Shown here piece after piece: positions 2,633 through 58,374 of a stretch of 64,000 nucleotides of DNA (position 1 is the first letter of the stretch; every line of letters starts with the position of its first letter). The notes under the pieces were generated by a model. The model did no database searches and was not told the origin of the DNA. It worked only from the letters and a program-made list of their open reading frames with translations. The DNA is from Candidatus Oleimmundimicrobium sp. (lineage in GTDB: Bacteria; Actinomycetota; Aquicultoria; UBA3085; Oleimmundimicrobiaceae): the NCBI RefSeq assembly GCF_030651595.1, contig NZ_JAUSCH010000084.1, positions 1,338 to 65,337 of the forward strand, written 5' to 3'. The position numbers were made by a program, and so were the translations under genes.

Positions 2633-3382
2633 TTACTCAAAACCTTTTTCAAAGGTGCGCATACATAAGATTATCATACTCAAGGCAAATGATATCAGAA
2701 TCAATAAGATCAAACCGCAGCCCGATATGTTCCCGGTGAGCATTATTTTTCTTGAGATGTCGATGATGTAAGTGACCGGATTTATTGATGCCACACATCG
2801 CAACCATGCCGGCATCTTGTCCAAAGGCATCAGGGCCGAACTGGCCAAGAAAAGCGGCAAGCTAACTAAGCTTATAATTGCACCGAAACCGTGCAAATCG
2901 GCCACCTTGAAGGCGATAAATATTGAAAGGGCCGAGAGGCCCATGGCAAAGAAGAGGGCGCATCCAAATACCAGTAGAAGACCGGCAAGACCACCTTCCA
3001 TTCTCGCGCCGAGAATCCACGCGGTGGCAAGGACGGCCGAGAGATGAATCATTCCCTTGCTCATGGCCGCCGTAATTTTGCCCATGGCTATCACCGGCCG
3101 CGGAGTGGGGGTTGCGAATATCTTCTTTAAGTAACCGTAGATTTTGTCGGCCGAGGTGAGCAAGCCGCTTTGAAGTGAGGGCATCATGACGGACATCACC
3201 ATTATGCCGGGAGTTACATAATCCAAATACCTTCCTGAATTTGTTGACATGGGCAAAGAGCCGAGCACCGCCAACCAGGCGACGGGGCCGACTATTGAGG
3301 CAATTAAGTTTATTTTGAGTCTAAATAATATCTTGATATCGCGTTTACAGATTTTTATGAAGGCATTAAACAACAACATCAC
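2633..3382 (-). CDS. ABC-2 type transporter permease
   Basis: 249 aa, about 6 predicted TM helices. Overlaps the upstream ABC ATPase stop by 4 nt. Confidence 0.7.
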   Translation of the reverse strand: MMLLFNAFIKICKRDIKILFRLKINLIASIVGPVAWLAVLGSLPMSTNSGRYLDYVTPGIMVMSVMMPSLQSGLLTSADKIYGYLKKIFATPTPRPVIAMGKITAAMSKGMIHLSAVLATAWILGARMEGGLAGLLLVFGCALFFAMGLSALSIFIAFKVADLHGFGAIISLVSLPLFLASSALMPLDKMPAWLRCVASINPVTYIIDISRKIMLTGNISGCGLILLILISFALSMIILCMRTFEKGFE

Positions 3383-4377
3383 CCTCTCATTAGCTTTCTT
3401 ATAATTTTTTTGTGTTTTCTGGCCTCTTTGGGGCTTGGGCTCTCTTCGGTATCACCCGTGTATTTGATGAACACCTCGTCCAAGCCGGCTTGCTTCATCA
3501 AAACCGAGTTGATGGTGATTTCCTTTGAAGTCAAAACTTGCATGACCTCAGGCAAGAACTTGTCGCCCTCTTCCACTATTAGCTCCATTTCCGTTTCAAC
3601 GCATTTTTTGCTTTTAATTTTTTCCATTCCTTCCAGCGCTTCAGAAGCTTTCTCCACGTCCTCTTTCTCTATACGTATTCTAATTACATCTCCTCCAATT
3701 TGATTGGACAACGTGCTTGGGGAGCCCGAGCAAACGATTTTTCCCTTGGTGATTATGGCTACCCTGTCGCAAAGCGCCGCTGCTTCGTCCATGTAATGGG
3801 TGGTGATAAAGAAGGTAACCTTTTTTTCTTCTTTCAACCTGAGGATGAATTCCCATATCTTATGGCGGGCGGTGACGTCCAGGCCGATGGTGGGCTCATC
3901 CAGGAAGACGACTTCCGGTTGATGGATGAGAGCTTGAGCTAACTCCAGCTTTCTCTTCATTCCGCCGGAGTAAGTGGCTGCGGGATTATCCGCGACCTTA
4001 GAAAGTTCGAAGAATTTGAGGAAGTAATCCATCCTCTGCTTTCGTTTGGCGGGAGGTATGCCGTAAAGGGAGCCGAAGAGATCCAAGCTTTCCCGCGCCG
4101 TGAGAGCATCATCCACAGCCAATCCTTGAGGCACGTAACTTATGTGTTTTCTTACCTTGCGAGCCTCTTTTGCTATATCGAATCCACAAACCGATGCCTT
4201 TCCCCCGCTTTGTTTGAGCAGGGTGGTGAGCATGAGCACCGTGGTGGTCTTTCCCGCGCCATTGGGTCCGAGCAAACCAAAAGCTTCACCTCTTGGGATT
4301 TCGAGGTCGACATCATCTACCGCCAGGTTGCCGTCATAGTATTTGGTTAGTTCCCTTGCTTCAATTATTTTATCCAA
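3379..4377 (-). CDS. ABC transporter ATP-binding protein (DrrA-like, with C-terminal extension)
   Basis: Walker A GPNGAGKTT, signature YSGGMKRKL, Walker B VVFLDEPT. Confidence 0.85.
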   Translation of the reverse strand: MDKIIEARELTKYYDGNLAVDDVDLEIPRGEAFGLLGPNGAGKTTTVLMLTTLLKQSGGKASVCGFDIAKEARKVRKHISYVPQGLAVDDALTARESLDLFGSLYGIPPAKRKQRMDYFLKFFELSKVADNPAATYSGGMKRKLELAQALIHQPEVVFLDEPTIGLDVTARHKIWEFILRLKEEKKVTFFITTHYMDEAAALCDRVAIITKGKIVCSGSPSTLSNQIGGDVIRIRIEKEDVEKASEALEGMEKIKSKKCVETEMELIVEEGDKFLPEVMQVLTSKEITINSVLMKQAGLDEVFIKYTGDTEESPSPKEARKHKKIIRKLMRG

Positions 4378-12911: not shown

Positions 12912-14612
12912 CTACCTAACGAAATGGATTTTGTGATTTCCGCTTATGCTCTTATCTTCCATTTGAATCGGTGCCTCAATTGCGGCAATACTCTCTCCGT
13001 TGTTTGAAATTGTGGCAATGGCGCAGATGCCCTCCATGGGATAGAACCAGCACAATTTGTTGCTAGCGTTGCCTTCCTTTGTTAAGTCGAAGCACTGCAC
13101 GCCGGCCATGTCTTTGTTTTGACTTACCCAGTCATGAGCTACCCCAACCACCATGTATCGATTATCTTGAGAGAATAGCGGACAACCGATTTTTCCCTCG
13201 GCCTTCCATTTCCACTGAAGTTTCCCTTCGTTGGAATAGGCAAATATGGTTGTGGCGTCCGGATGAACCGCGGGCGGTGTACCGGAACATTTTGTCTTAT
13301 CCGCGGAGTAAGTGACGCTGGTGGCAAAGATGGCGTTGCCCTCATTGTCCACGTGAGTGCCGTTGCCATAGGCATAAATGGGAACCCCGCTTACCTCCTG
13401 AATCTTGGAAATTTCCTTCATCCACACGAGCTTGAGCTCGCCGGTCTCTTTTGCTTTAGTTAAGTCGAAGAGAAATCCTCTTCCATCTCCTGCCATGGCC
13501 GTGAAATGATTGCCGTCTGGAGAGATGCAGATACCATCCCAAATTCCCACGAATTTAAAGTACGGCTCCAGGGCATCGACCTTGTAGACGGCCATTTCCT
13601 TTCCGGTTTCTCCATTTAAGAGACGGACTGTGCCATCGGGATATTTTTCCTGAACCATGCCGTAGTTCCAGCTCTGATTGACGAACATCACCTTGTTTCC
13701 ATCCGGGGTGGCTACCACCTTCGGTACGCCTGTATCCATGGGTTCGTCTTCTGGGAACCGCCACTTTGTTTTGCCGGACTCCACATCAAACGCGTAGATG
13801 AAGCACTTGGTTTTGTAAACGGTTACCTCTTTGTCTTCCACCATCTTATTTTCTTTTTGTTTCAGTTGTCCCGCGGCGAAAGCCGTATCTCCTGAAACGG
13901 TCAGACTATAAATCATGGGGCGGTAGTACCAGTAGCTGTCGGTGCTCGTTCCCACGTCCTCTGATACTTTATATTTCCAAAGCTCTTCACCGGTTTTGGT
14001 GTTGAAAGCATAAAGATAACCATCGGCGCTTGCTTCGCCAGCGAGAAGTATCTCGCCGTTGCTAGAGAAAGCAACCTTTTTGCCGACTCCGTCGGGAACC
14101 TGGTAGTCCCAGAGCTTCTTTCCGGCGTTGTCGAAGACGTAGAACTTCCCGTCGAAACCCGCTATCGCGATATATTTTCCATCCGGCGAGACAATTGTTT
14201 CCTCAGAAGGGACGCCTTGCCAATCTCCTATCTGAGGAAGTTCTTCCAGGGAACCAAGTTTTGCTTCCCCGAGTTTATAGGCGGAAGGTTTCTTTGGAGA
14301 CTCGGTTTCTTGGGTTATCACGCCTTCCTCTGATTTTATTGTGATGGCGCATTTCTCATTTGGTTCCCATTCGAAGGAGGCCAGTATGGTCTTTGTGTTT
14401 GGCTGAGTGAAATCAACCTTTTTGTCGGCTACTTTAACTTCTGAGACATCGCGCGCTTCGCTTAAAACAAGAACTGCTCCCATTCTGGTAAACAGGGCCG
14501 ACTCTAATTTTGCGACATCCTTCTTTCCCGAACAGCCGCTTAGAAGGGGCATGATGAAGGCCACAGAAAGTATAATGCCGATTATTTTTGCCAATCTTTT
14601 TTTATATTTCAC
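12912..14612 (-). CDS. PQQ-like beta-propeller repeat lipoprotein
   Basis: Lipobox LLSGCSG. Recurring blade motifs (FDNAGKKLWDYQV, FNTKTGEELWKYKV, FDVESGKTKWRF, NEGKLQWKWKA). Confidence 0.7.
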   Translation of the reverse strand: MKYKKRLAKIIGIILSVAFIMPLLSGCSGKKDVAKLESALFTRMGAVLVLSEARDVSEVKVADKKVDFTQPNTKTILASFEWEPNEKCAITIKSEEGVITQETESPKKPSAYKLGEAKLGSLEELPQIGDWQGVPSEETIVSPDGKYIAIAGFDGKFYVFDNAGKKLWDYQVPDGVGKKVAFSSNGEILLAGEASADGYLYAFNTKTGEELWKYKVSEDVGTSTDSYWYYRPMIYSLTVSGDTAFAAGQLKQKENKMVEDKEVTVYKTKCFIYAFDVESGKTKWRFPEDEPMDTGVPKVVATPDGNKVMFVNQSWNYGMVQEKYPDGTVRLLNGETGKEMAVYKVDALEPYFKFVGIWDGICISPDGNHFTAMAGDGRGFLFDLTKAKETGELKLVWMKEISKIQEVSGVPIYAYGNGTHVDNEGNAIFATSVTYSADKTKCSGTPPAVHPDATTIFAYSNEGKLQWKWKAEGKIGCPLFSQDNRYMVVGVAHDWVSQNKDMAGVQCFDLTKEGNASNKLCWFYPMEGICAIATISNNGESIAAIEAPIQMEDKSISGNHKIHFVR

Positions 14613-14926
14613 GCAGATTGCGCTCCTTTCAAGTTTTTATTTACATTAACAACATTGCAAGCTTAAGTCCGAATTTAGCTTTTTGATTTTCACCTCCTTG
14701 GTAAACAAAACAGTTTTCGATAATTGTTGCCAAATAAAAAGACCACAAAAATCTCATCCAGCTTTTGAGCCGGGTAAGACCTTCGTGGCCTAATTTCGGA
14801 AAAAGTTCTAATTTACAAAGCTGCAACCTTCGGGTTGCTCTATAATAAGTTAGACAAATTAATAGCATAATTTTAAAAAGATTACAATGTTTTATTCAAC
14901 GATACTGCTTCGTCAGAATTTTTTAA

Positions 14927-16220: not shown

Positions 16221-18020
16221 GTGGCTTATATTTCTCTTTATAGAAAATATCGACCTCAAACACTTGAAGAAGTGGTTGGCCAAAAACATATAACCCACAC
16301 GCTTTCCAATGCGGTTAAGCATAATAAAATATCTCATGCTTATTTATTTTGCGGTCCAAGGGGAACGGGGAAAACGAGTGTAGCTAAAATCTTGGCTAAG
16401 ATGCTCAATTGTAAAAATGGTCCCACCCCCACCCCTTGCAATAAATGCGAAGCTTGTAATCAGATTAACAATGGGAGCTTCCTTGATGTTTTTGAAATAG
16501 ATGCTGCTTCAAATCGGGGAATTGATGAGATCCGCGATCTTAAAGGAAAGATTAACTTTTCACCCACCGAAGGCTATATGAAGGTCTACATAATTGATGA
16601 AGTGCACATGCTCACCCCTGAAGCGTTCAACGCGCTTCTTAAAACATTAGAAGAACCTCCTTCTCATGTAATTTTTGTTCTAGCCACAACGGAGCCACAC
16701 AAAGTTTTATCTACAATTTTATCTCGCTGTCAGCGTTTTGATTTTAGGCGAATTCTTACATCTGATATGGTGGCAAGATTGTTATTTGTGGCTGAAGCTG
16801 AAGGGATTAACGCGGAAGAAACCGCGCTAACCTTAATCGCGAAACATGCTCAGGGTAGTTTACGAGATGCTCTGGGTACGTTAGACCAGCTATCTTCCTT
16901 TATTGGGAAAAATATAAAAACTTGTGATGTAACTACTTTATTGGGGATGTTTGATACGGAACTCCTTTTTGATGTTGTAGAAACATTGTATAAAAGAGAT
17001 ACGGCCTCTACTTTTGAATATGTTGAAAAACTGATTGCAAGCGGCAGGGACCCTAAGCAGTTTACTAAGGATTTAATTGAATATATTCGGGCACTTTTTA
17101 TAATTAAAAACACCGAAACAGCAAACGAAATAATCAATGTAACGCCCGAAGTTTTTGCTAAGATGGAAAACCAGGCTGTTCGTTTTCAGAACACTGAGCT
17201 TATGCGATTTTTAGATGTTTTAAGCACATCTCACAGTCAAATGCGTTGGAATCCCGATGTGAAGCTGGTTTTGGAGATGACCTTGGTGAAACTTACAAGG
17301 CCGGAAACAAATTCATCTATTGATGGGTTGCTTTGCCGGGTTGAGAAGCTTGAAAGATTAATTGAAGGGCAAAAGATTGGAGTTGCCAAAGAGAAAAAAG
17401 AGAGCTTGAATATAGAAAAAGGTGTGGAATCTGCTTCAACTGAAGAAAAGAAAAAAATTGAGCATGTATGCGTTAAAAGTCAAAATGAACACGAGAAATT
17501 GGAGAAGGCGGAGGAGAAAAGGAGTAAAAAACCGGATGATACCGGTTTAAAGTCAGAAAGTGTAAAAGAGAAGAAAGAAGATAAAGAAGCCAAGTGCCAG
17601 AAATCTAATGTGGCCGGTAGTTCTAGAGATACTGATAAAGCAAAACGTGCCTGGCCGGTTGTTTTAGATAAAGTTAAAAAGAAAAAGATATCTACCTATG
17701 CCTTATTGCTTGAATGTCAGCCGGCTGAACTTGAGAATTCAAAATTAACTCTTAAATTTAATCGAAACGCGGGTTTTCATAAGAGCGAAATTGAAAGGCC
17801 TCAAAACTTTAGACTGGTGCGAGAATCTTTGGAAGAAGTTTTGGGTTTTAAGATTAAGATGAATTGTGTTTTGGATGTGGGCGGAGAATCAATTAAAGCA
17901 GAAGCAAAAAAGGAAGATGAGATGTTGGATAGAGAAAATATCGTTGATTTGTTGCAGCGAGATTTTGACGCGGAGATAACCGAGGAAAATGTTGTTGATG
18001 AAAAAGGGGATATTAAATAA
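16221..18020 (+). CDS. dnaX: DNA polymerase III subunit gamma/tau
   Basis: YRPQTLEEVVGQ, GPRGTGKTS, zinc module CNKCEACNQI, DEVHML. Confidence 0.95.
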   Translation: MAYISLYRKYRPQTLEEVVGQKHITHTLSNAVKHNKISHAYLFCGPRGTGKTSVAKILAKMLNCKNGPTPTPCNKCEACNQINNGSFLDVFEIDAASNRGIDEIRDLKGKINFSPTEGYMKVYIIDEVHMLTPEAFNALLKTLEEPPSHVIFVLATTEPHKVLSTILSRCQRFDFRRILTSDMVARLLFVAEAEGINAEETALTLIAKHAQGSLRDALGTLDQLSSFIGKNIKTCDVTTLLGMFDTELLFDVVETLYKRDTASTFEYVEKLIASGRDPKQFTKDLIEYIRALFIIKNTETANEIINVTPEVFAKMENQAVRFQNTELMRFLDVLSTSHSQMRWNPDVKLVLEMTLVKLTRPETNSSIDGLLCRVEKLERLIEGQKIGVAKEKKESLNIEKGVESASTEEKKKIEHVCVKSQNEHEKLEKAEEKRSKKPDDTGLKSESVKEKKEDKEAKCQKSNVAGSSRDTDKAKRAWPVVLDKVKKKKISTYALLLECQPAELENSKLTLKFNRNAGFHKSEIERPQNFRLVRESLEEVLGFKIKMNCVLDVGGESIKAEAKKEDEMLDRENIVDLLQRDFDAEITEENVVDEKGDIK

Positions 18021-18063
18021 AATTAGCAGTTAAAACATTATTCTTAAAGGAGAGATAACATTT

Positions 18064-18372
18064 ATGGACATTGGTAAATTAATGAAGCAAGCTAAAAAAA
18101 TGCAGCAGGAAATGGTCAAAATTCAAGAAAAATTGGCTGACGAACGGATTGAGGCGAGCGCCGGAGGTGGAGCTGTTAAGGTTGTTGTAAACGGGAAGCA
18201 GGAATTGCTTGATATAAAAATTGACCCCAGCGTTGTGGACCCTGATGATATAGAGATGCTTCAAGATTTAGTGCTTGCCGCTGCCAACGAAGCTCTTCAG
18301 CAAAGCAGGGATTTGGCCGCGCAAAGAGTTAATAGTGTTACGGGTGGCATGGGCATACCGGGCTTGACATAA
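18064..18372 (+). CDS. ybaB: Nucleoid-associated protein YbaB/EbfC
   Basis: 102 aa, MKQAKKMQQEMVKIQEKL.... Conserved dnaX-ybaB synteny. Confidence 0.9.
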   Translation: MDIGKLMKQAKKMQQEMVKIQEKLADERIEASAGGGAVKVVVNGKQELLDIKIDPSVVDPDDIEMLQDLVLAAANEALQQSRDLAAQRVNSVTGGMGIPGLT

Positions 18373-18847
18373 TATGGCAAATGCCTGCCCGCCTCCCCGC
18401 CTGCCTACGCCTATGATGCCGTTAGGCATTGGCGGGCAGGTGGCGGGGCAGATGGCTGATGGCAGATGGCATATAGAAAAAGAAGGGTAAAGGAAAAGTC
18501 AAAAGTCAACAAAGCTGGTGGCTTATGGCTGATAGCAGATGGCAAACAGGGTATGGAGTGTTGTAATAAGACCAGCAATCTGGCCGACAAACTACTGACT
18601 TCCCACCAAGAGACTACCGACTGATTAGTAGAGGATAAAGGGTAAAGGATTAAGCGGTAAGGATTAAGAAGCAAGTTGGAAATGTACAGGAGATTAAGTT
18701 GTGATTAGGTAGTAATTAAGTAGAGATTAAGAATAAGACCATTAATTTCAATGAATTACAATAAATTTCAATTAATTTCAAAGCAACTGAAGCCTAGTGT
18801 TTGAAGTCTGATTTATGCAAATTGTTAATGGTTAAAGGAGTGATTTT
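18373..18847. repeat. Intergenic insertion built of tandem degenerate heptamers plus a GC-rich imperfect hairpin; it separates ybaB from recR
   Basis: Heptamer runs GCAGATG GCTGATG GCAGATG, GCTTATG GCTGATA GCAGATG, GGATAAA GGGTAAA GGATTAA GCGGTAA GGATTAA, and AGTCAAA AGTCAAC. A block ccagcaatctggccgacaaactactgacttcccaccaagagactaccgactgat shares about 85% identity with 58232-58288. Confidence 0.7.
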
Positions 18848-19444
18848 GTGTATTATGCGGCCCCGGTTGCAGTTTTAATTGAAGAGTTAACAAAACTACC
18901 GAGCATTGGGCCAAAGTCTGCTCAAAGGCTGGCCTTTTATCTTTTGAAAGTTTCTCCTGAGAGTGCTAAAAATTTGGCTGATGCCATCATAAACGTTAAA
19001 GATAAAGTTGGGTTCTGCAAGATTTGTTTCAATATAACCGAAGAGGATACATGCGAAATGTGTCTTGATTTTGAAAGAGATGATTCATTGCTCTGCATAG
19101 TTGAAGAACCGCAAGATATCGTTGCTTTGGAAAAAACGTGCAGTTTTAAGGGGCGCTATCATGTTTTAGGAGGAGCCATTTCTCCTATAGATGGGATAGG
19201 TCCTGAGGATTTAAAGATACACGAATTACTGAATCGCTTGAAAGACGGAAAGGTTCAAGAGATAGTCGTTGCTACAAATCCTAATATTGAGGGAGAGGCT
19301 ACAGCGATGTATATCGCCAAACTAGTTAAGCCTTTTGGAATTAGAGTTACTAGAATAGCTAGTGGGTTACCTGTTGGAGGAGATTTGGAATATGCGGACG
19401 AGGTTACTTTAAGTAAGGCGTTAGAAGGAAGAAGAGAGATGTGA
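18848..19444 (+). CDS. recR: Recombination protein RecR
   Basis: Zinc finger [16 protein letters not shown]. Toprim region. GTG start. Confidence 0.9.
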
Positions 19445-19485
19445 ACCAAAAAAACTAAAAACTAACCGTTGACCGCAACAAATCG

Positions 19486-19520
19486 ACCGCTTATTGAAAA
19501 TTAGCGGTTTTTATATTTTA
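19486..19520 (+). terminator. Rho-independent terminator after recR
   Basis: accgct-(11 nt loop)-agcggt followed by TTTTATATTTT. Confidence 0.6.
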
Positions 19521-22556: not shown

Positions 22557-22582
22557 GATATTGTTACATAAAAATGTTAAAC

Positions 22583-22620
22583 AAAACCCCCGTACTAAAT
22601 GCCGGGGGTTTTGTTTATTT
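22583..22620 (+). terminator. Rho-independent terminator after porB
   Basis: aaacccccg-tactaaatgc-cgggggttt followed by a T-run. Confidence 0.7.
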
Positions 22621-22791
22621 AAAAGACAAATTTTGTTGGATAATTAAATTATGCTTAAATTGTAAGAGACTTAAGCTCGTTGCCGATTACCACGCTTTTT
22701 TCAAACATCCAATTAAGTAATTAAGTAAAGTTGTTTTACCTCTTGCAAGTTGTTAGAATAGGATAAATCTTTAAGTAAGGTAGGTTATCTT

Positions 22792-24006: not shown

Positions 24007-24140
24007 TAGATAGCCGATAGCGTATGGCTGATGGCTAAAAACCAGTTAGAAGTCAAAAAAACAGATGGCTATTTTTTAGTTTTTTTATTTACTATTAACT
24101 GTGGACTAACAACTAAGAACTAAACCGGAGGGAAGAAAGA
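24007..24140. repeat. Heptamer-repeat intergenic element downstream of the lysC stop
   Basis: GCCGATA GCGTATG GCTGATG GCTAAAA immediately after the stop, plus an AGTCAAAAA word shared with 18.49 kb. Confidence 0.5.
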
Positions 24141-27274: not shown

Positions 27275-29053
27275 ATGGAACCCATAAAAATTATAGAGAG
27301 CTATCCTGACAAATGTAAAGAGTGTTATAGCTGTATTCGCTCATGTCCCGTTAAGAGTATAAAGATAAGCAATGGTTGCGTTGAGGTTCTGGACGAAACA
27401 TGTATATATTGTGGTGAATGCGTAATAGTTTGTTCTCAAGGAGCGTTGGTATATAAAGACAGTATTCAACGCGCATATCGTATTGCCAACAAAAAAAAGA
27501 AAGCTGTTGCAATTTTATCTCCCGAATGCCTGGCCGCTTTCCCCTCAATTGGTTCAACTGAAATTGCTGCCGGGCTCATAAAACTTGGCTTTGATGCCAT
27601 TGAAGGGACTATCTTGGGGGAAGAACTTGTGGCCGCGGAATATAAGAAGATTTTGAGTCAAGCTGAAGATTTTCCAATGATTCGCTCCACGTGTCCTGTT
27701 GTTACAAACTTAATAGAAAAATATTTTCCTAATCTTATCCCATATCTTGCCCCTGTTGTGTCGCCAATGATTGCCCAAGGCCGTCTTTGTAAAGAGTTAT
27801 ATGAAGGGGCTTATACAGTCTATGTAACCTCGTGTGTTGCTCAAAAGGCCGAAGCAATGGATGAACCCATCGCAGACGCTATTGATACAGTGATAACATT
27901 CTCCGAGCTCAAGAAGATGTTTGAAGATGCGGAGATTGATCTTAAATTATTATCCGAGGCGAAATTGGAGCCGGTTGAGCGCGTTTTGCGGGTGGATTCC
28001 TTGCCAGGGGGATTGCCTCGACAATTTATGGCTAAAATGAGCACAATCAACCGTAACCTTAAGACAGCAAGGGGTGTGCAGGAAACGCATGCTTTAGCGG
28101 AGGCTTTAAACGAGGGTGAGATTCGAGCAAATTTTGTGGATGTTTTAAATTGTAAGGGTTGTATTGATGGGCCGGTGATGAGGAATGGTTTAGCTAACGG
28201 GAGAAGCTTATATCTTTTAAAGAATCAAATACAGCAAAGTTATAGAAGAGAGAGAAAAAAGATGGGGTGGGTTAACCCATCTGAGATACTCCCTAATTTA
28301 CCAAAAATAAATTTGAGGAGAACTTTTACCGATAAAACAATTCCCTTGGTTTCTCCCGCAAAAGAAGAACTGAAAAAATTACTGGCGGAGGCGGATATTT
28401 TTACTCCTGAAGATGAGCTTAACTGTGGTGCTTGTGGATACAAAACATGTGTTAAAAATGCAAGCGCCATATATCAAGGGGTCACTAACTGGAGCACATG
28501 TTTCCCGTATCAAAAAAAACTCATGGTTCAAATAAAAGAAAACGCGGAAAAAATATCCATGGTTGACGCAGTTACCGGGTTGCTCAATCATTATGGATTT
28601 ACTCGTACTCTTAAAAAAGAAGCAAAAAGAGCTCATCGGTATGGCTCGGCACTTTCAATCATAGTTCTTGACATCGATCGGTTTAAATTAATAAACGATA
28701 CCTATGGTCATGTAAGAGGAGATGAGGTTCTAAAATCTGTAGCAAAAATATTATGTAGCAATTTGCGTGAAACGGATTTTGTTGCTCGTCAAGGAGGAGA
28801 TGAATTTACAGTAATTTTGCCACAGATTGAAAAAACGGAAGCTTTCGCGGTTGCGGAAAAGCTACGTTGCAAAACCGAAAATTTTAATTTTATATTTGAG
28901 AAAAAACGCATTCCTATAACCTTAAGTCTCGGAGTTGCTTCTCTTCCCCAAGGGGAAAAAGATCCCTTGTTTTTATTTGATATGGCGGATAAAGCCATGT
29001 ACCAAGCTAAAAAAACCGGACGCAACAAAACATGTATCGCTAAAGATATTTAG
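27275..29053 (+). CDS. Sensory [FeFe]-hydrogenase-like (HydS-type) protein fused to a GGDEF diguanylate cyclase domain
   Basis: Two 4Fe-4S motifs (CKECYSCIRSCP, CIYCGECVIVCS). H-cluster motifs STCPV, TSCVAQKAE and NCKGCIDGP. Cx2Cx4Cx16C (CGACGYKTC-16-C). GGDEF with I-site RETD and A-site GGDEF. Confidence 0.75.
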   Translation: MEPIKIIESYPDKCKECYSCIRSCPVKSIKISNGCVEVLDETCIYCGECVIVCSQGALVYKDSIQRAYRIANKKKKAVAILSPECLAAFPSIGSTEIAAGLIKLGFDAIEGTILGEELVAAEYKKILSQAEDFPMIRSTCPVVTNLIEKYFPNLIPYLAPVVSPMIAQGRLCKELYEGAYTVYVTSCVAQKAEAMDEPIADAIDTVITFSELKKMFEDAEIDLKLLSEAKLEPVERVLRVDSLPGGLPRQFMAKMSTINRNLKTARGVQETHALAEALNEGEIRANFVDVLNCKGCIDGPVMRNGLANGRSLYLLKNQIQQSYRRERKKMGWVNPSEILPNLPKINLRRTFTDKTIPLVSPAKEELKKLLAEADIFTPEDELNCGACGYKTCVKNASAIYQGVTNWSTCFPYQKKLMVQIKENAEKISMVDAVTGLLNHYGFTRTLKKEAKRAHRYGSALSIIVLDIDRFKLINDTYGHVRGDEVLKSVAKILCSNLRETDFVARQGGDEFTVILPQIEKTEAFAVAEKLRCKTENFNFIFEKKRIPITLSLGVASLPQGEKDPLFLFDMADKAMYQAKKTGRNKTCIAKDI

Positions 29054-29196
29054 TGATAGTGGGTGGCATATGGCTGATAGCAGATGGCGAATAGCATATG
29101 GCTGATGCTTGCCCGCCGCTGGTGGGGCTCTAATGGCAGATGGCAAATAGGTAAATGAAACTCTCCACTCCCGACTAACAGAATTAAACTGGAAGG
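29054..29196. repeat. Heptamer-repeat intergenic element downstream of the HydS-GGDEF stop
   Basis: GCATATG GCTGATA GCAGATG GCGAATA GCATATG GCTGATG, then a GC-rich segment tgcccgccgctggtgggg, then GCAGATG GCAAATA. Confidence 0.6.
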
Positions 29197-32960: not shown

Positions 32961-33112
32961 GCTTAAAATCCATACCGGTAAATGCATTATTTTGGCCACT
33001 TACCTTCAAATTTGTATCGTTGAGGGCAAAGTGGTTGTTATTTTTAAGAGGTCAAACTAAAATAATCTAATCTATAGTTGCTTTTGTTTACTAATTAAAG
33101 GGGGACATTATT

Positions 33113-49034: not shown

Positions 49035-49138
49035 TCAGCCCCCAGCATCCAGCCACCAGGGGCCAGAAGTATTACGTATTGCCTGGAAGCTGACGACTGA
49101 TAGCTGGTAGCTAAAATCGACTAAAAGGAGATTTATGT
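49035..49138. repeat. Heptamer-repeat intergenic element between acsB and acsC
   Basis: GCTGACG ACTGATA GCTGGTA GCTAAAA preceded by a GC-rich cagcccccagcatccagccaccagggg. Confidence 0.45.
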
Positions 49139-55190: not shown

Positions 55191-55448
55191 ATAAAAGGGG
55201 TCAGTCCCAGTCCTCAGCTGCCAGGAAAAATATAAGAGCAGAGAGCAGAAAATAAGGTAACGGATAAAAGGGGAAAGTCAAAAAGGGACAACTCTAAGCC
55301 GTCATTGCGAGGAGCAAGGCGACGAAGCAATCTCATAAATAGCGGATGGTTGAAAGTTAAAAGAGCATAGAATATAGCAAAAACTAGCAAACAAACCATC
55401 TAATTAACTATTAAATATCGGCTACAAACTTAGAAATGGAGTTTCTCA
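55191..55448. repeat. Intergenic element between metF and hdrC, homologous in two blocks to 58106-58260
   Basis: cagtcccagtcctcagctgccagg...agagcagagagcagaaaata and atagaatatagcaaaaactagcaaacaaacc, versus cagctcccagtcgtgagctgccagc...atagagcagagagcgagcagaatat and atagaatatagagtatagcaaaaccagcaatctggcc. Confidence 0.6.
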
Positions 55449-56872: not shown

Positions 56873-57934
56873 ATGGAATTTAAACCCAGTTGTCTCCCAA
56901 TGGCTGTTGGAAGCATGCCACATATGGATGCAGTTAAAGCATGCGAGGTAATTTTAAAATATACTCCTCAGATACCGGCATGGCCCCAACTTCCCAACCT
57001 TTCTTTTAAAGAAAACATGTGTACTCAAGTTTCAGAGGGTATGCCGGCAGTAAAAATAGATGAAGAGAAAAAGAAAATTTATCTGGACGCAGGGGACAAT
57101 TTAACTTGGAAGCTTGAGCAATTTTATGAAAAGTTCTTGGCTGAAGACCTCGACTATTTTGAAATATCTGCTGATTATGCTCGAGGGTTTCATGTCATGT
57201 TTGACACATTAAAAAAACACCTGCCAAGCAATTTAGTTATTCTTAAAGGGCAGTTAACGGGTCCAATCAGCTTTGGTTTGACGGTTACAGACCAAAATAA
57301 ACAAGCTGTTCTCTATAATGATTTTTTAAGGGATGCAATTATAAAAACACTTATGATGAAGGCCAAATGGCAGGAGAGGCAATTTAAGAAATTATCTGCC
57401 AACACAAAAACCATTATCTTTTTTGATGAACCGTATCTTCAGTCTTATGGTTCAGCTTATATAAAATTAAATAAGGATGAGGTCGTATCTTATCTAAACG
57501 AGTGTTTTTCTGCAGTTGAAGGTCTTTGTGGTGTTCATTGTTGCGGTCGAACCGACTGGAGCATTTTGATGGAAACCAATGTTAATATTATAAGTTTCGA
57601 TGCGTATGACCATACTGAAAGCGTAGCTCTTTATCCCAAAGAACTAAATAAATTTTTAAATAGAGGAGGAGTTCTTGCCTGGGGGATAGTGCCGTCTACT
57701 TATCCAACTCCGGATGCAATAGCGAAAGAGACCTTGGATAGCATTCTTAACCGGTTTGAAGAGAAAATTCAGTTATTGGTTGACAAAGGAATAGATAAAA
57801 TGAATCTTCTTGAAGCAAGCTTAATTACTCCAAACTGCGGCGCGGGCTCAATGACGGAAGAATTGGCGGAAAAGAGCATCAGATTAACTTCAGAGCTTTC
57901 TTTAGCTTTAAGAGAAAGATATTTTGGCAGATAG
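56873..57934 (+). CDS. Core-MetE-like zinc methyltransferase (cobalamin-independent methionine synthase C-terminal domain family, short form)
   Basis: GPISFGL; IIFFDEPYLQSYGS (compare IQIDEPAL); VHCCGR (His-Cys); ITPNCGAGS (compare PDCGLK). 353 aa. Confidence 0.6.
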   Translation: MEFKPSCLPMAVGSMPHMDAVKACEVILKYTPQIPAWPQLPNLSFKENMCTQVSEGMPAVKIDEEKKKIYLDAGDNLTWKLEQFYEKFLAEDLDYFEISADYARGFHVMFDTLKKHLPSNLVILKGQLTGPISFGLTVTDQNKQAVLYNDFLRDAIIKTLMMKAKWQERQFKKLSANTKTIIFFDEPYLQSYGSAYIKLNKDEVVSYLNECFSAVEGLCGVHCCGRTDWSILMETNVNIISFDAYDHTESVALYPKELNKFLNRGGVLAWGIVPSTYPTPDAIAKETLDSILNRFEEKIQLLVDKGIDKMNLLEASLITPNCGAGSMTEELAEKSIRLTSELSLALRERYFGR

Positions 57935-58374
57935 CAGATAGCAGATGGCAGATAGCAGATGGCAGATGGTTAGAGGTTGAACCCTTCTCTCCCTCCCCCT
58001 TGACGGGGGAGGGTTGGGGTGAGGGTGAAGGAGCTGATAGCTATTAGTTATTGGTCTTTATGTTTTAGTTTTTGGCTAACGGCTAAAGTTTAGGGTATAG
58101 GGTAATGGGGAAAGGGTATTCAGCTCCCAGTCGTGAGCTGCCAGCTTTCAGGGAAACTAAAAATATGAGTACGGAGCATAGAGCAGAGAGCGAGCAGAAT
58201 ATGGAGTATAGAATATAGAGTATAGCAAAACCAGCAATCTGGCCAACAAACTACCGACTCCCCACTAAGAGACTACCGACTGATGGAGCAGAGAGCCGTT
58301 AGCTATCGAAGTTACCCAGTACGGGCCAGTATCTGGTAGGGCCGGGTTATCTATCGACGAAAGCGAGGATTTAA
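57935..58374. repeat. 440-bp intergenic element: (GCAGATR)x6 tandem heptamers starting inside the last codons of the upstream gene, a 9-bp perfect GC hairpin, and blocks homologous to 18.56 kb and 55.2 kb
   Basis: gcagata gcagata gcagatg gcagata gcagatg gcagatg at 57928-57969. ccctccccc-ttgac-gggggaggg at 57991-58013. GARTATA x4 near 58200. ccagcaatctggccaacaaactaccgactccccactaagagactaccgactgat matches 18563-18617. Confidence 0.75.

Follow-up and report, generated by a model that had tools for sequence, protein, structure and literature searches.

Heptamer arrays, a palindromic element and dispersed modules compose the enlarged ybaB-recR spacer of Candidatus Oleimmundimicrobium

The dnaX-ybaB-recR locus of Candidatus Oleimmundimicrobium was analysed in a 64-kb stretch of genomic DNA (contig NZ_JAUSCH010000084.1, positions 1,338 to 65,337; hereafter the window), in which 475 nucleotides (nt) separate ybaB from recR. 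The host belongs to the Actinomycetota, class Ca. Aquicultoria, order Ca. Subteraquimicrobiales. A protein search matched its RecR at 100% identity to that of Candidatus Oleimmundimicrobium sp. at NCBI, and the Wood-Ljungdahl genes in the window (acsB, CODH, CdhD, MTHFR) are consistent with this assignment. Pfam searches of both flanking genes confirmed the 475-nt gap reported in a first-pass annotation of the sequence. The gap is a mosaic of heptamer arrays, a 45-nt palindromic element lying in the loop of a smaller hairpin, and a 58-nt C-rich block (Table 1; tandem repeats were called with Tandem Repeats Finder, TRF). A consensus scan for promoters and terminators gave no call on the gene strand within this spacer; it gave one terminator-like call on the opposite strand (18393-18376), and its totals were near the shuffle expectation. 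The simplest reading of the gene order would be a dnaX-ybaB-recR operon with a 475-nt intercistronic spacer.

Table 1. Features of the ybaB-recR locus and the other 7-nt periodic spacers of the window
Feature	Coordinates	Strand	Remarks
dnaX	16221-18020		just 5' of ybaB
ybaB, upstream gene	18064-18372	+	102 aa; from the list of open reading frames; Pfam YbaB_DNA_bd, E = 2e-35; stop TAA 18370-18372
Whole ybaB-recR spacer	18373-18847	+	475 nt, non-coding mosaic; lag-7 z = 7.0
First TGGCAAA heptamer	18375-18381	+	2 nt past ybaB stop; compare TATGGCTGATGCTTGCCCGCC at 29097-29117
Small outer GC hairpin, left arm GCCTGCCCGCCTC	18383-18395	+	
45-nt GC-rich palindromic mini-element CCCGCCTGCCTACGCCTATGATGCCGTTAGGCATTGGCGGGCAGG	18396-18440	+	in the loop of the small hairpin
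Small outer GC hairpin, right arm TGGCGGGGCA	18441-18450	+	
T[A/G]GC[A/T]GA array 1	18447-18476	+	TRF period 7, 3.6 copies (18447-18471); matches arrays at 29065, 24024 and 57926
GGGTAAAGGAAAAGTCAAAAGTCAAC module, AAAAGTC x 2.3	18487-18511	+	TRF (18494-18509, period 7)
T[A/G]GC[A/T]GA array 2	18519-18546	+	73 nt downstream of array 1 (repeat finder, spacing 73)
58-nt dispersed block	18568-18625	+	C-rich, predicted unstructured, weakly 7-periodic (ACTACTG ACTTCCC ... ACTACCG ACTGAT)
GG[A/G]T[A/T]AA array	18628-18668	+	TRF period 7 and 14 (18632-18668)
AT-rich 11-nt repeat, ATTAAGTAGTA x 3.5	18693-18731	+	TRF
AT-rich 10-nt repeat, AATTTCAATA x 3.8	18744-18781	+	TRF
recR ribosome-binding site AAAGGAG and GTG start	18834-18850	+	
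recR, downstream gene	18848-19444	+	198 aa; Pfam RecR_HhH, RecR_ZnF, Toprim_4, RecR_C; all five RecR/Toprim domains
Spacer 3' of lysC	24007-24140	+	z = 6.5; T[A/G]GC[A/T]GA array abuts stop, ACTAAnn heptamers precede next ribosome-binding site
Spacer 3' of HydS-GGDEF gene	29054-29196	+	z = 4.7; T[A/G]GC[A/T]GA arrays on either side of an empty small hairpin
Spacer 3' of acsB	49035-49138	+	z = 5.5; CCAGCnn heptamers; acsB confirmed by Pfam
Spacer 3' of metF (MTHFR)	55191-55448	+	z = 3.7; modules in common with 57935-58374
Spacer upstream of cooC, after a 353-aa gene ending at 57934	57925-58374 (57935-58374 tested)	+	z = 10.3

The length of the gap was compared with 48 control loci from unrelated Actinomycetota and Bacillota, in which the approximate ybaB-recR gap was about 69 nt at the median and at most 208 nt. 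The junction is thus abnormally long, as the annotation had stated, whereas its description of the two genes as usually contiguous was overstated, many bacteria having tens of bases between them. The controls came from a RecR search of genome contigs, which returned only sequences of at most 65% identity from other classes because RecR is too conserved; close relatives were obtained by a protein search and exact-protein look-ups.

The ybaB-recR spacer is strongly periodic at 7 nt. Identity at lag 7 was 0.412, compared with 0.267 ± 0.021 in 1000 dinucleotide shuffles, none of which reached the observed value. The first-pass picture of a gap filled by degenerate heptamer arrays plus a hairpin is supported. 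Six junctions of the 64-kb window are periodic, this one and five others between genes on the same strand. Three spacers with a terminator or with divergent neighbours (14613-14926, 22557-22791 and 32961-33112) showed no periodicity (z about 0). When the window was pooled, intergenic DNA showed peaks at lags 7, 14 and 21, and coding DNA showed only the 3-nt codon period. All 56-nt windows with a lag-7 identity of at least 0.55 were intergenic or lay across a stop codon; none fell inside a gene body. By the same cut-off, 7-periodic DNA was 12 times as dense in the window (134 nt per 10 kb) as in unrelated Actinomycetota and Bacillota loci totalling 1.33 Mb (11 nt per 10 kb), and none of the other lags from 5 to 11 was comparably enriched over these controls.

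Repeats had been proposed to follow directly on the stop codons of several genes. We found them after lysC, the HydS-GGDEF gene, acsB, metF and the gene ending at 57934, but not after a putative Dam fragment at the left edge of the window, where no heptamer array follows the stop (235-237) and the open frame had no Pfam hits. The roughly 395 nt past that stop (238-632) have a C-rich start, ACCCCCAGCCCCTCTTCC, a 104-aa open reading frame (ORF; 252-566, no Pfam hits) and no 7-nt periodicity.

The arrays do not form one repeat family, as had been assumed, but several. Each spacer is a concatenation of short degenerate arrays with the units T[A/G]GC[A/T]GA, GG[A/G]T[A/T]AA, CCAGCnn, AGAGCAG/ATAGAGT or ACTAAnn/ACTACCG, and written in rows of seven the register is held over long stretches, for about 400 nt at 57920-58340. 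The heptamer strings quoted in the annotation are present: GCAGATG GCTGATG GCAGATG at 18448-18468, AGTCAAA AGTCAAC at 18497-18510, and GGATAAA GGGTAAA GGATTAA GCGGTAA GGATTAA at 18633-18667. Three copies of AATTTCAA reported near 18745 also exist (18745-18783), but TRF assigns them a period of 10 nt instead of 7. The last third of the spacer, on the recR side, is AT-rich and carries tandem repeats of 11 and 10 nt. A string similar to the GGGTAAAGGAAAAGTCAAAAGTCAAC module, GGGGAAAGTCAAAAAGGGAC, occurs at 55268-55288. The GG[A/G]T[A/T]AA family recurs at 58091-58119 and follows the 58-nt block in the metagenome loci L096 and L100, and in L100 the block is also preceded by a module similar to the 11-nt repeat. 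The spacer 5' of cooC combines many of these parts. There, a six-unit TGGCAGA/TAGCAGA array (TRF 57925-57969) provides the stop codon of the upstream gene and is accompanied by a GC hairpin, several heptamer families and a second copy of the block (58227-58284). The hairpin, at 57985-58030 (TCTCCCTCCCCC TTGAC GGGGGAGGG TTGGGGTGAGGG; -35.8 kcal/mol, z = -2.8), is unrelated to that behind ybaB, and no further copy was found in the fetched loci.

The arrays are placed unevenly. In 14 of the 15 intergenic cases from the window and its relatives, T[A/G]GC[A/T]GA arrays were co-oriented with the flanking genes, and about half of these arrays start within 11 nt of the upstream stop codon. The TGGCAAA heptamer directly behind ybaB is, as we read it, the remnant of such a stop-proximal array interrupted by hairpins. 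Heptamers of the ACTAAnn/ACTGAnn type, by comparison, sit just 5' of ribosome-binding sites.

Periodic DNA also occurs in the relatives L086, L089, L091 and L095 and is absent from L093 and L094 (Ca. Aquicultor secundus). In L095, which belongs to a different genus, heptamer arrays are abundant elsewhere (356 nt per 10 kb) despite a tight ybaB-recR junction. Two of its regions (2530-2718 and 3323-3402) carry CAACTAA arrays and the reverse complement TTAGTTG on the two sides of a small gene with a 23S_rRNA_IVP domain, forming a long inverted pair of heptamer arrays. In L091, a gene-free region of about 1.1 kb (364-1531) contains arrays in both orientations, including the run CAACTAC CAACTAT AAACTGT TAACTGA, which ends in the TAACTGA unit of Beggiatoaceae.

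The GC-rich imperfect palindrome of the first-pass annotation was located at 18383-18450. It folds into a composite hairpin of -47.9 kcal/mol (z = -3.8), the inner stem of which is the 45-nt element. In L001, a strain of the same species, the left arm of the small hairpin is followed immediately by its right arm without the 45 bases, so that the boundaries of the element are unambiguous. This uninterrupted form, GCCTGCCCGCCTCTGGCGGGGC, is also found after the acsB stop in L097, and a variant lies at 29107-29128 of the window. Near-identical copies of the element occur twice in L086, once at the orthologous site and once at an unrelated site at 18040. L100 likewise has two, one within the same small hairpin at another locus and one splitting a 58-nt block that is intact in L096 and L098; the central loop of the latter copy differs and yet is still self-complementary. 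In all, three independent sites plus two orthologous or composite copies were counted in the approximately 250 kb examined. Because it is polymorphic for presence, with unique boundaries, and has copies at unrelated sites, the element is, from these alignments, demonstrably a discrete insertion, and the only such one in the spacer. Its ends, set by the empty site in L001, read CCCGCC... and ...GGCAGG. Neither carries the GTAG or CGTC tetranucleotide that tags repetitive extragenic palindromic (REP) sequences, a minus-strand GTAG lying 9 nt inside, and no target-site duplication is visible at the insertion.

The 58-nt block is dispersed. According to the repeat finder, 18568-18625 and 58227-58284 are 91% identical over 58 nt, and 18571-18625 matches 58230-58284 at 92.7% over 55 nt. 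A near-identical block of about 55 bp had been described earlier, correctly except for an offset in its coordinates (58232-58288). It is no chance word: its 21-nt core occurs twice in the window, where 0.00 occurrences are expected, and was found in seven metagenome loci. The block lies at no fewer than five different junctions, among them sites 5' of acsC-like genes and of argH-like genes (argininosuccinate lyase, a name based on the N-terminal translation), a gatA-gatB-like junction and ybaB-recR. It has a GC skew of -0.31 in an otherwise G-rich spacer, and its fold (z = +0.9) predicts no structure. A second, 143-nt module (58167-58309) matches a portion of the acsB-acsC spacer of L097, an L091-type species, at 91.6% identity; there it occupies a different junction, and the coding flanks of that genome are 77-84% identical. 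The small hairpin, the T[A/G]GC[A/T]GA array, the block and the GGGTAAA array recur in differing sets at different junctions. The list of inverted repeats contained none that pair the ends of the spacer, of the block or of the 143-nt module. Scans of viral contigs gave no matches to the 45-nt element or to the block and hence no sign of a phage vector. A Y1_Tnp domain, as in REP-associated tyrosine transposases (RAYTs, of the IS200/IS605 type), was absent from the Pfam listings of the fetched loci (at most 20 kb each), and no RAYT was seen in the available sequence.

Comparison with relatives shows a graded series of junctions. The gap measures 434 nt in L001 (RecR 100% identical to that of the window), 379 nt in L086 (84%), 84 nt in L089/L090 (82%) and 183 nt in the L091 group (80%). 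In the class-level relatives L095 (77%) and L093 (73%) it is 0 and 34 nt, respectively, and L094 (72%) has 219 nt that are not 7-periodic. With gaps graded from 0 through 34, 84, 183, 379 and 434 to 475 nt, the spacer is best described as having been enlarged within the lineage. This replaces the initial proposal of a single 475-bp insertion; only the 45-nt hairpin is demonstrably a discrete one. The only part kept in an alignment of the window, L086, L089 and L091 is the last 20 nt or so, with the ribosome-binding site and start of recR.

Differences among the closest relatives point to the repeats themselves. L001 is 99.7% identical to the window over the aligned 6.4-kb locus and has 14 additional nt, equal to two extra units, in T[A/G]GC[A/T]GA array 1; L002 lacks 14 nt in array 2, and L086 has 7 additional nt in the spacer. 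The decamer array is shorter by 10 nt in L001 and by 30 nt in L086. L086 also lacks 73 nt, exactly the DNA between the two T[A/G]GC[A/T]GA arrays, and because this length equals their start-to-start spacing, the repeats account for the deletion. All indels between these close relatives are thus either explained by repeats or due to the 45-nt element, and slippage would be the likely mechanism behind the former. Other junctions are expanded as well: L086 has two, of 411 nt (13712-14122) and 452 nt (17949-18400), and the acsB-acsC spacer comprises about 500 nt in L097 (reverse complement 1686-2185), whereas that of the window has 104 nt. The junctions that are expanded differ between species.

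The spacer appears to be younger than its flanks. Between the window and L086 it is 96.8% identical over 372 aligned nt, compared with 80.6% for ybaB, 80.2% for recR, 78.2% for dnaX, 75-83% for the por genes and 61-87% for other spacers, while 49% of 4-fold degenerate sites differ (219/447). Identity jumps at the gene ends, synonymous differences continuing up to the edge of the spacer. The L086 version recurs with its diagnostic differences in three independent assemblies and is therefore not a chimera. In a comparison of seven concatenated proteins with a pairwise aligner, L091, whose spacer is different, was nearer to the window (83.0%) than L086 was (81.3%). The contrast between a spacer of approximately 97% identity and flanks of approximately 80%, with 49% divergence at 4-fold sites, argues that the modules are young and either mobile or laterally exchanged. 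We infer that the spacer was replaced laterally by recombination through the conserved ybaB 3' end and a 28-nt segment spanning the ribosome-binding site and start of recR. Within the species, about 4 substitutions in 430 nt of spacer (0.9%) separate the window from L001, compared with 0.2% in the rest of the locus; small as these counts are, the rate gives no sign of strong constraint.

Taken together, we consider it probable that the gap is non-coding repeat DNA of mosaic structure, characteristic of this lineage and shaped by slippage, palindrome insertion and module dispersal. In such a process, slippage would add and remove 7-nt units in the arrays and 10-11-nt units in the AT-rich part, giving rise to the several heptamer families and to the length differences between strains. 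The GC-rich, REP-like 45-nt element would have landed in the loop of the smaller hairpin just past the ybaB stop. The block, the 143-nt module and the small hairpin would move between junctions and between related species, either by recombination or by some mobility mechanism. Such DNA may be mostly selfish or neutral and tolerated only between same-strand genes, where it disrupts neither promoter nor terminator. The mosaic is probably transcribed with the operon, to judge by the gene arrangement, and because the ancestral ribosome-binding site has been kept at the 3' edge, recR should still be translated. Like REP sequences, the hairpin of -48 kcal/mol beside the ybaB stop may protect the dnaX-ybaB mRNA and uncouple recR expression, likely as a side effect.

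Several points weigh against this interpretation. The examined sequence revealed no transposase, terminal inverted repeat or target-site duplication. The non-random placement of the T[A/G]GC[A/T]GA arrays hints at selection or a targeted process, although their orientation is confounded with the replication strand, and the 97% identity across species could stem from purifying selection rather than recent exchange.

The last two points lead to the alternative that arrays and block are selected cis-elements of a post-transcriptional system, which sets the ratio of dnaX-ybaB to recR expression. The arrays would be tandem 7-nt RNA sites for a protein of the cold-shock or S1 type with an oligonucleotide-binding (OB) fold, or Rho would act on the C-rich block. 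The latter is the sole unstructured patch of the spacer with more C than G. Repeats of the TAACTGA type in Beggiatoaceae are placed just 5' of ribosome-binding sites like the ACTAAnn/ACTGAnn heptamers here, and a translational role was proposed for them (PMC4679880); in Nostoc, heptamers altered the expression of a reporter for the region upstream of recO, and a part in regulating recF was proposed (bioRxiv 10.1101/2022.06.06.494920); neither proposal is proven. However, the spacer tolerates indels of 14, 30, 45 and 73 nt among close relatives. The spacer is of another kind in L091, the nearest by proteins, measures only 84 nt in L089 and is missing from L095 and L093; furthermore, heptamer families vary between junctions and the within-species substitution rate looks neutral. 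A sponge for CsrA was rejected, as GGA motifs are not enriched (8 observed, 11 expected). We judge regulation of this kind unlikely, though the strand bias, the placement near stops and starts and the identity across species lend it some weight.

A broader proposal, for this lineage or perhaps for all heptamer-rich bacteria, would be an active process that writes and copies cassettes in 7-nt register after stop codons and moves them between junctions and species, or else a conserved RNA code read in 7-nt steps by a dedicated protein. Either would explain the stop adjacency, the strand bias, the 400-nt register and the contrast between 97% spacer identity and 49% divergence at 4-fold sites; we regard it as speculative and quite unlikely.

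Very unlikely, in our opinion, is that the whole spacer of some 380-475 nt is one composite element resembling a miniature inverted-repeat transposable element (MITE), inserted site-specifically and independently in the species of the window and of L086. The spacers are near-identical in two species with diverged flanks, L089 resembles an empty site that keeps only stop-proximal heptamers and the ribosome-binding-site region, and modules recur at other junctions. On the other hand, the edges of the spacer show no terminal inverted repeats or target-site duplication, and divergence is higher in the first 25 nt or so past the stop (5 mismatches) than in the core. There is no second full-length copy in the window or the fetched loci, where module sets and orders differ, and homologous replacement through the conserved ends explains the same data.

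That the spacer hides a small-protein gene or a structured non-coding RNA is highly improbable. It contains a very stable hairpin, and three ORFs lie in it or overlap it (52 aa on the plus strand, 87 and 53 aa on the minus strand). These ORFs had no Pfam hits, stop codons occur in all three frames, and no frame would survive the indels of 10, 14, 45 and 73 nt that separate close relatives. A search with Rfam 15 at gathering thresholds returned nothing in the whole window, and at E ≤ 1 the spacers gave only sub-threshold noise from generic hairpin-shaped microRNA and CRISPR-repeat models. A scan for tRNA and tmRNA found none, the fold of the whole spacer is not significant (z = -1.67; 8 of 100 shuffles as stable), and its sequence is made of repeats common to other spacers. 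Repeats collapsed or mis-joined in a metagenome-assembled genome are a barely credible cause: although four short-read contigs of the same organism (L084, L085, L087 and L088) break inside repeats, independent assemblies of other samples reproduce the join. L001 spans it with only repeat-unit differences, L002 covers most of it, and the L086, L087 and L088 versions agree among themselves. These four contigs end about 38 nt past the ybaB stop or inside the 58-nt block, which suggests that the mosaics systematically fragment assembled genomes of this lineage.

If the spacer is, as we favour, lineage-characteristic repeat DNA, it can be set beside several known systems. Heptamer arrays were noticed more than 30 years ago in cyanobacteria and later in Xanthomonas, giant sulfur bacteria and some Bacteroidetes. 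The units of the cyanobacterial short tandemly repeated repetitive (STRR) sequences are CCCCAGT (STRR1), TTGGTCA (STRR2) and CAACAGT (STRR3). To our knowledge, no mechanism or function is established for such arrays. Over-represented intergenic heptamers include the heptanucleotides of Calothrix and Nostoc, GGGGA(T/C)T in Nostoc, GGGAATC in Xanthomonas, and TAACTGA in Beggiatoaceae, Cyanobacteria and Bacteroidetes (PMC4692102, PMC4679880); one proposed explanation is polymerase slippage, favoured at 7 nt (Mrazek 2007, as cited in PMC4692102). The arrays described here share with STRR and other heptamer simple sequence repeats the tandem 7-nt units in 2-6 or more copies, the restriction to intergenic DNA, the several unit families per genome, the length steps of 7 nt between strains and the positions overlapping stop codons or just 5' of start codons. 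They differ in the host phylum, a deep-branching anaerobic Wood-Ljungdahl lineage of Actinomycetota, and in the units (T[A/G]GC[A/T]GA, GG[A/G]T[A/T]AA, CCAGCnn, AGAGCAG, ACTAAnn), which resemble STRR and TAACTGA only loosely (CCAGC/CCCAGT at 49036 and 55205; ACTGAT/ACTAAC). Unlike STRR, Oleimmundimicrobium arrays are short, highly degenerate and joined into spacers of 100-500 nt with hundreds of bases in 7-nt register, and palindromic insertions and dispersed non-tandem modules lie in between them.

The palindromic element and the mosaic organisation are most closely matched by mosaics of REP sequences and bacterial interspersed mosaic elements (BIMEs), known from Enterobacteria and Pseudomonas, and by REPINs. 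As in these (PMC3733652, PMC3116915), a short imperfect GC-rich palindrome lies outside genes, between same-strand neighbours and near the upstream stop, in multiple near-identical copies with presence/absence polymorphism and in a mosaic with other short motifs. In Thermomicrobium roseum, the REP sequence GTAG-23 is inserted inside a small GC palindrome (PMC3733652), just as the 45-nt element sits within a smaller one. The element differs in lacking the terminal GTAG or CGTC, a REP criterion (PMC3733652), and in its partners, which are heptamer arrays in place of the BIME motifs S, L, s, l and r. MITEs such as Nezha, RUP, ERIC and Correia are similarly non-autonomous, dispersed intergenic modules of 60-150 nt that are alike across related species; they are co-transcribed with neighbouring genes, as the modules here may be. 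The block and the 143-nt module, in contrast, lack terminal inverted repeats and target-site duplications, and the order of modules is shuffled. A search of the literature library on the genus name Oleimmundimicrobium found no paper. The present case differs from the known ones in its host lineage, in its unit sequences, in the missing REP tag and in joining heptamer arrays to nested palindromes and dispersed modules.

The occurrence of heptamer arrays in an uncultured, anaerobic actinobacterial lineage of acetogenic type widens their distribution and argues for repeated origin or spread. The locus is an unusually tractable case, with seven graded states at one housekeeping junction, a dated 45-nt insertion and evidence of modules much younger than the genes around them; its main value lies in this combination of a young, exchangeable spacer with graded states. 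In practical terms, repeats of this type break short-read assemblies and inflate 'intergenic' DNA that can be mistaken for regulatory RNA.

Some further features of the window were recorded. The motif GTCATTGCGAGGAGCAAGGCGACGAAGCAATC occurs once in the window, in the spacer 3' of metF (55301-55332), with a weak fold (z = -0.4); very similar strings are also present between genes in several unrelated phyla. Past recR, a hairpin followed by a T run (GACCGCTTATTGAAAATTAGCGGTTTTTATATTTTATTT, 19484-19520) resembles an intrinsic terminator as read from the sequence. The consensus scan overlooked it because of its 11-nt loop, and in L086 the surrounding recR-por spacer has 81% identity. Gene orientation changes from all-minus to all-plus at the 314-nt divergent spacer 14613-14926, and about 1-2 kb downstream, at 15-17 kb, a negative GC skew gives way to a strongly positive one (+0.2 to +0.3). 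Either a switch close to a replication origin or just a coding-strand effect could account for this. Finally, the HydS-GGDEF gene (27275-29053) encodes a 592-aa protein in which a [FeFe]-hydrogenase-like sensory domain (Fe_hyd_lg_C and Fe-S clusters) is joined to a GGDEF diguanylate cyclase, an architecture conserved in L086 and L093.

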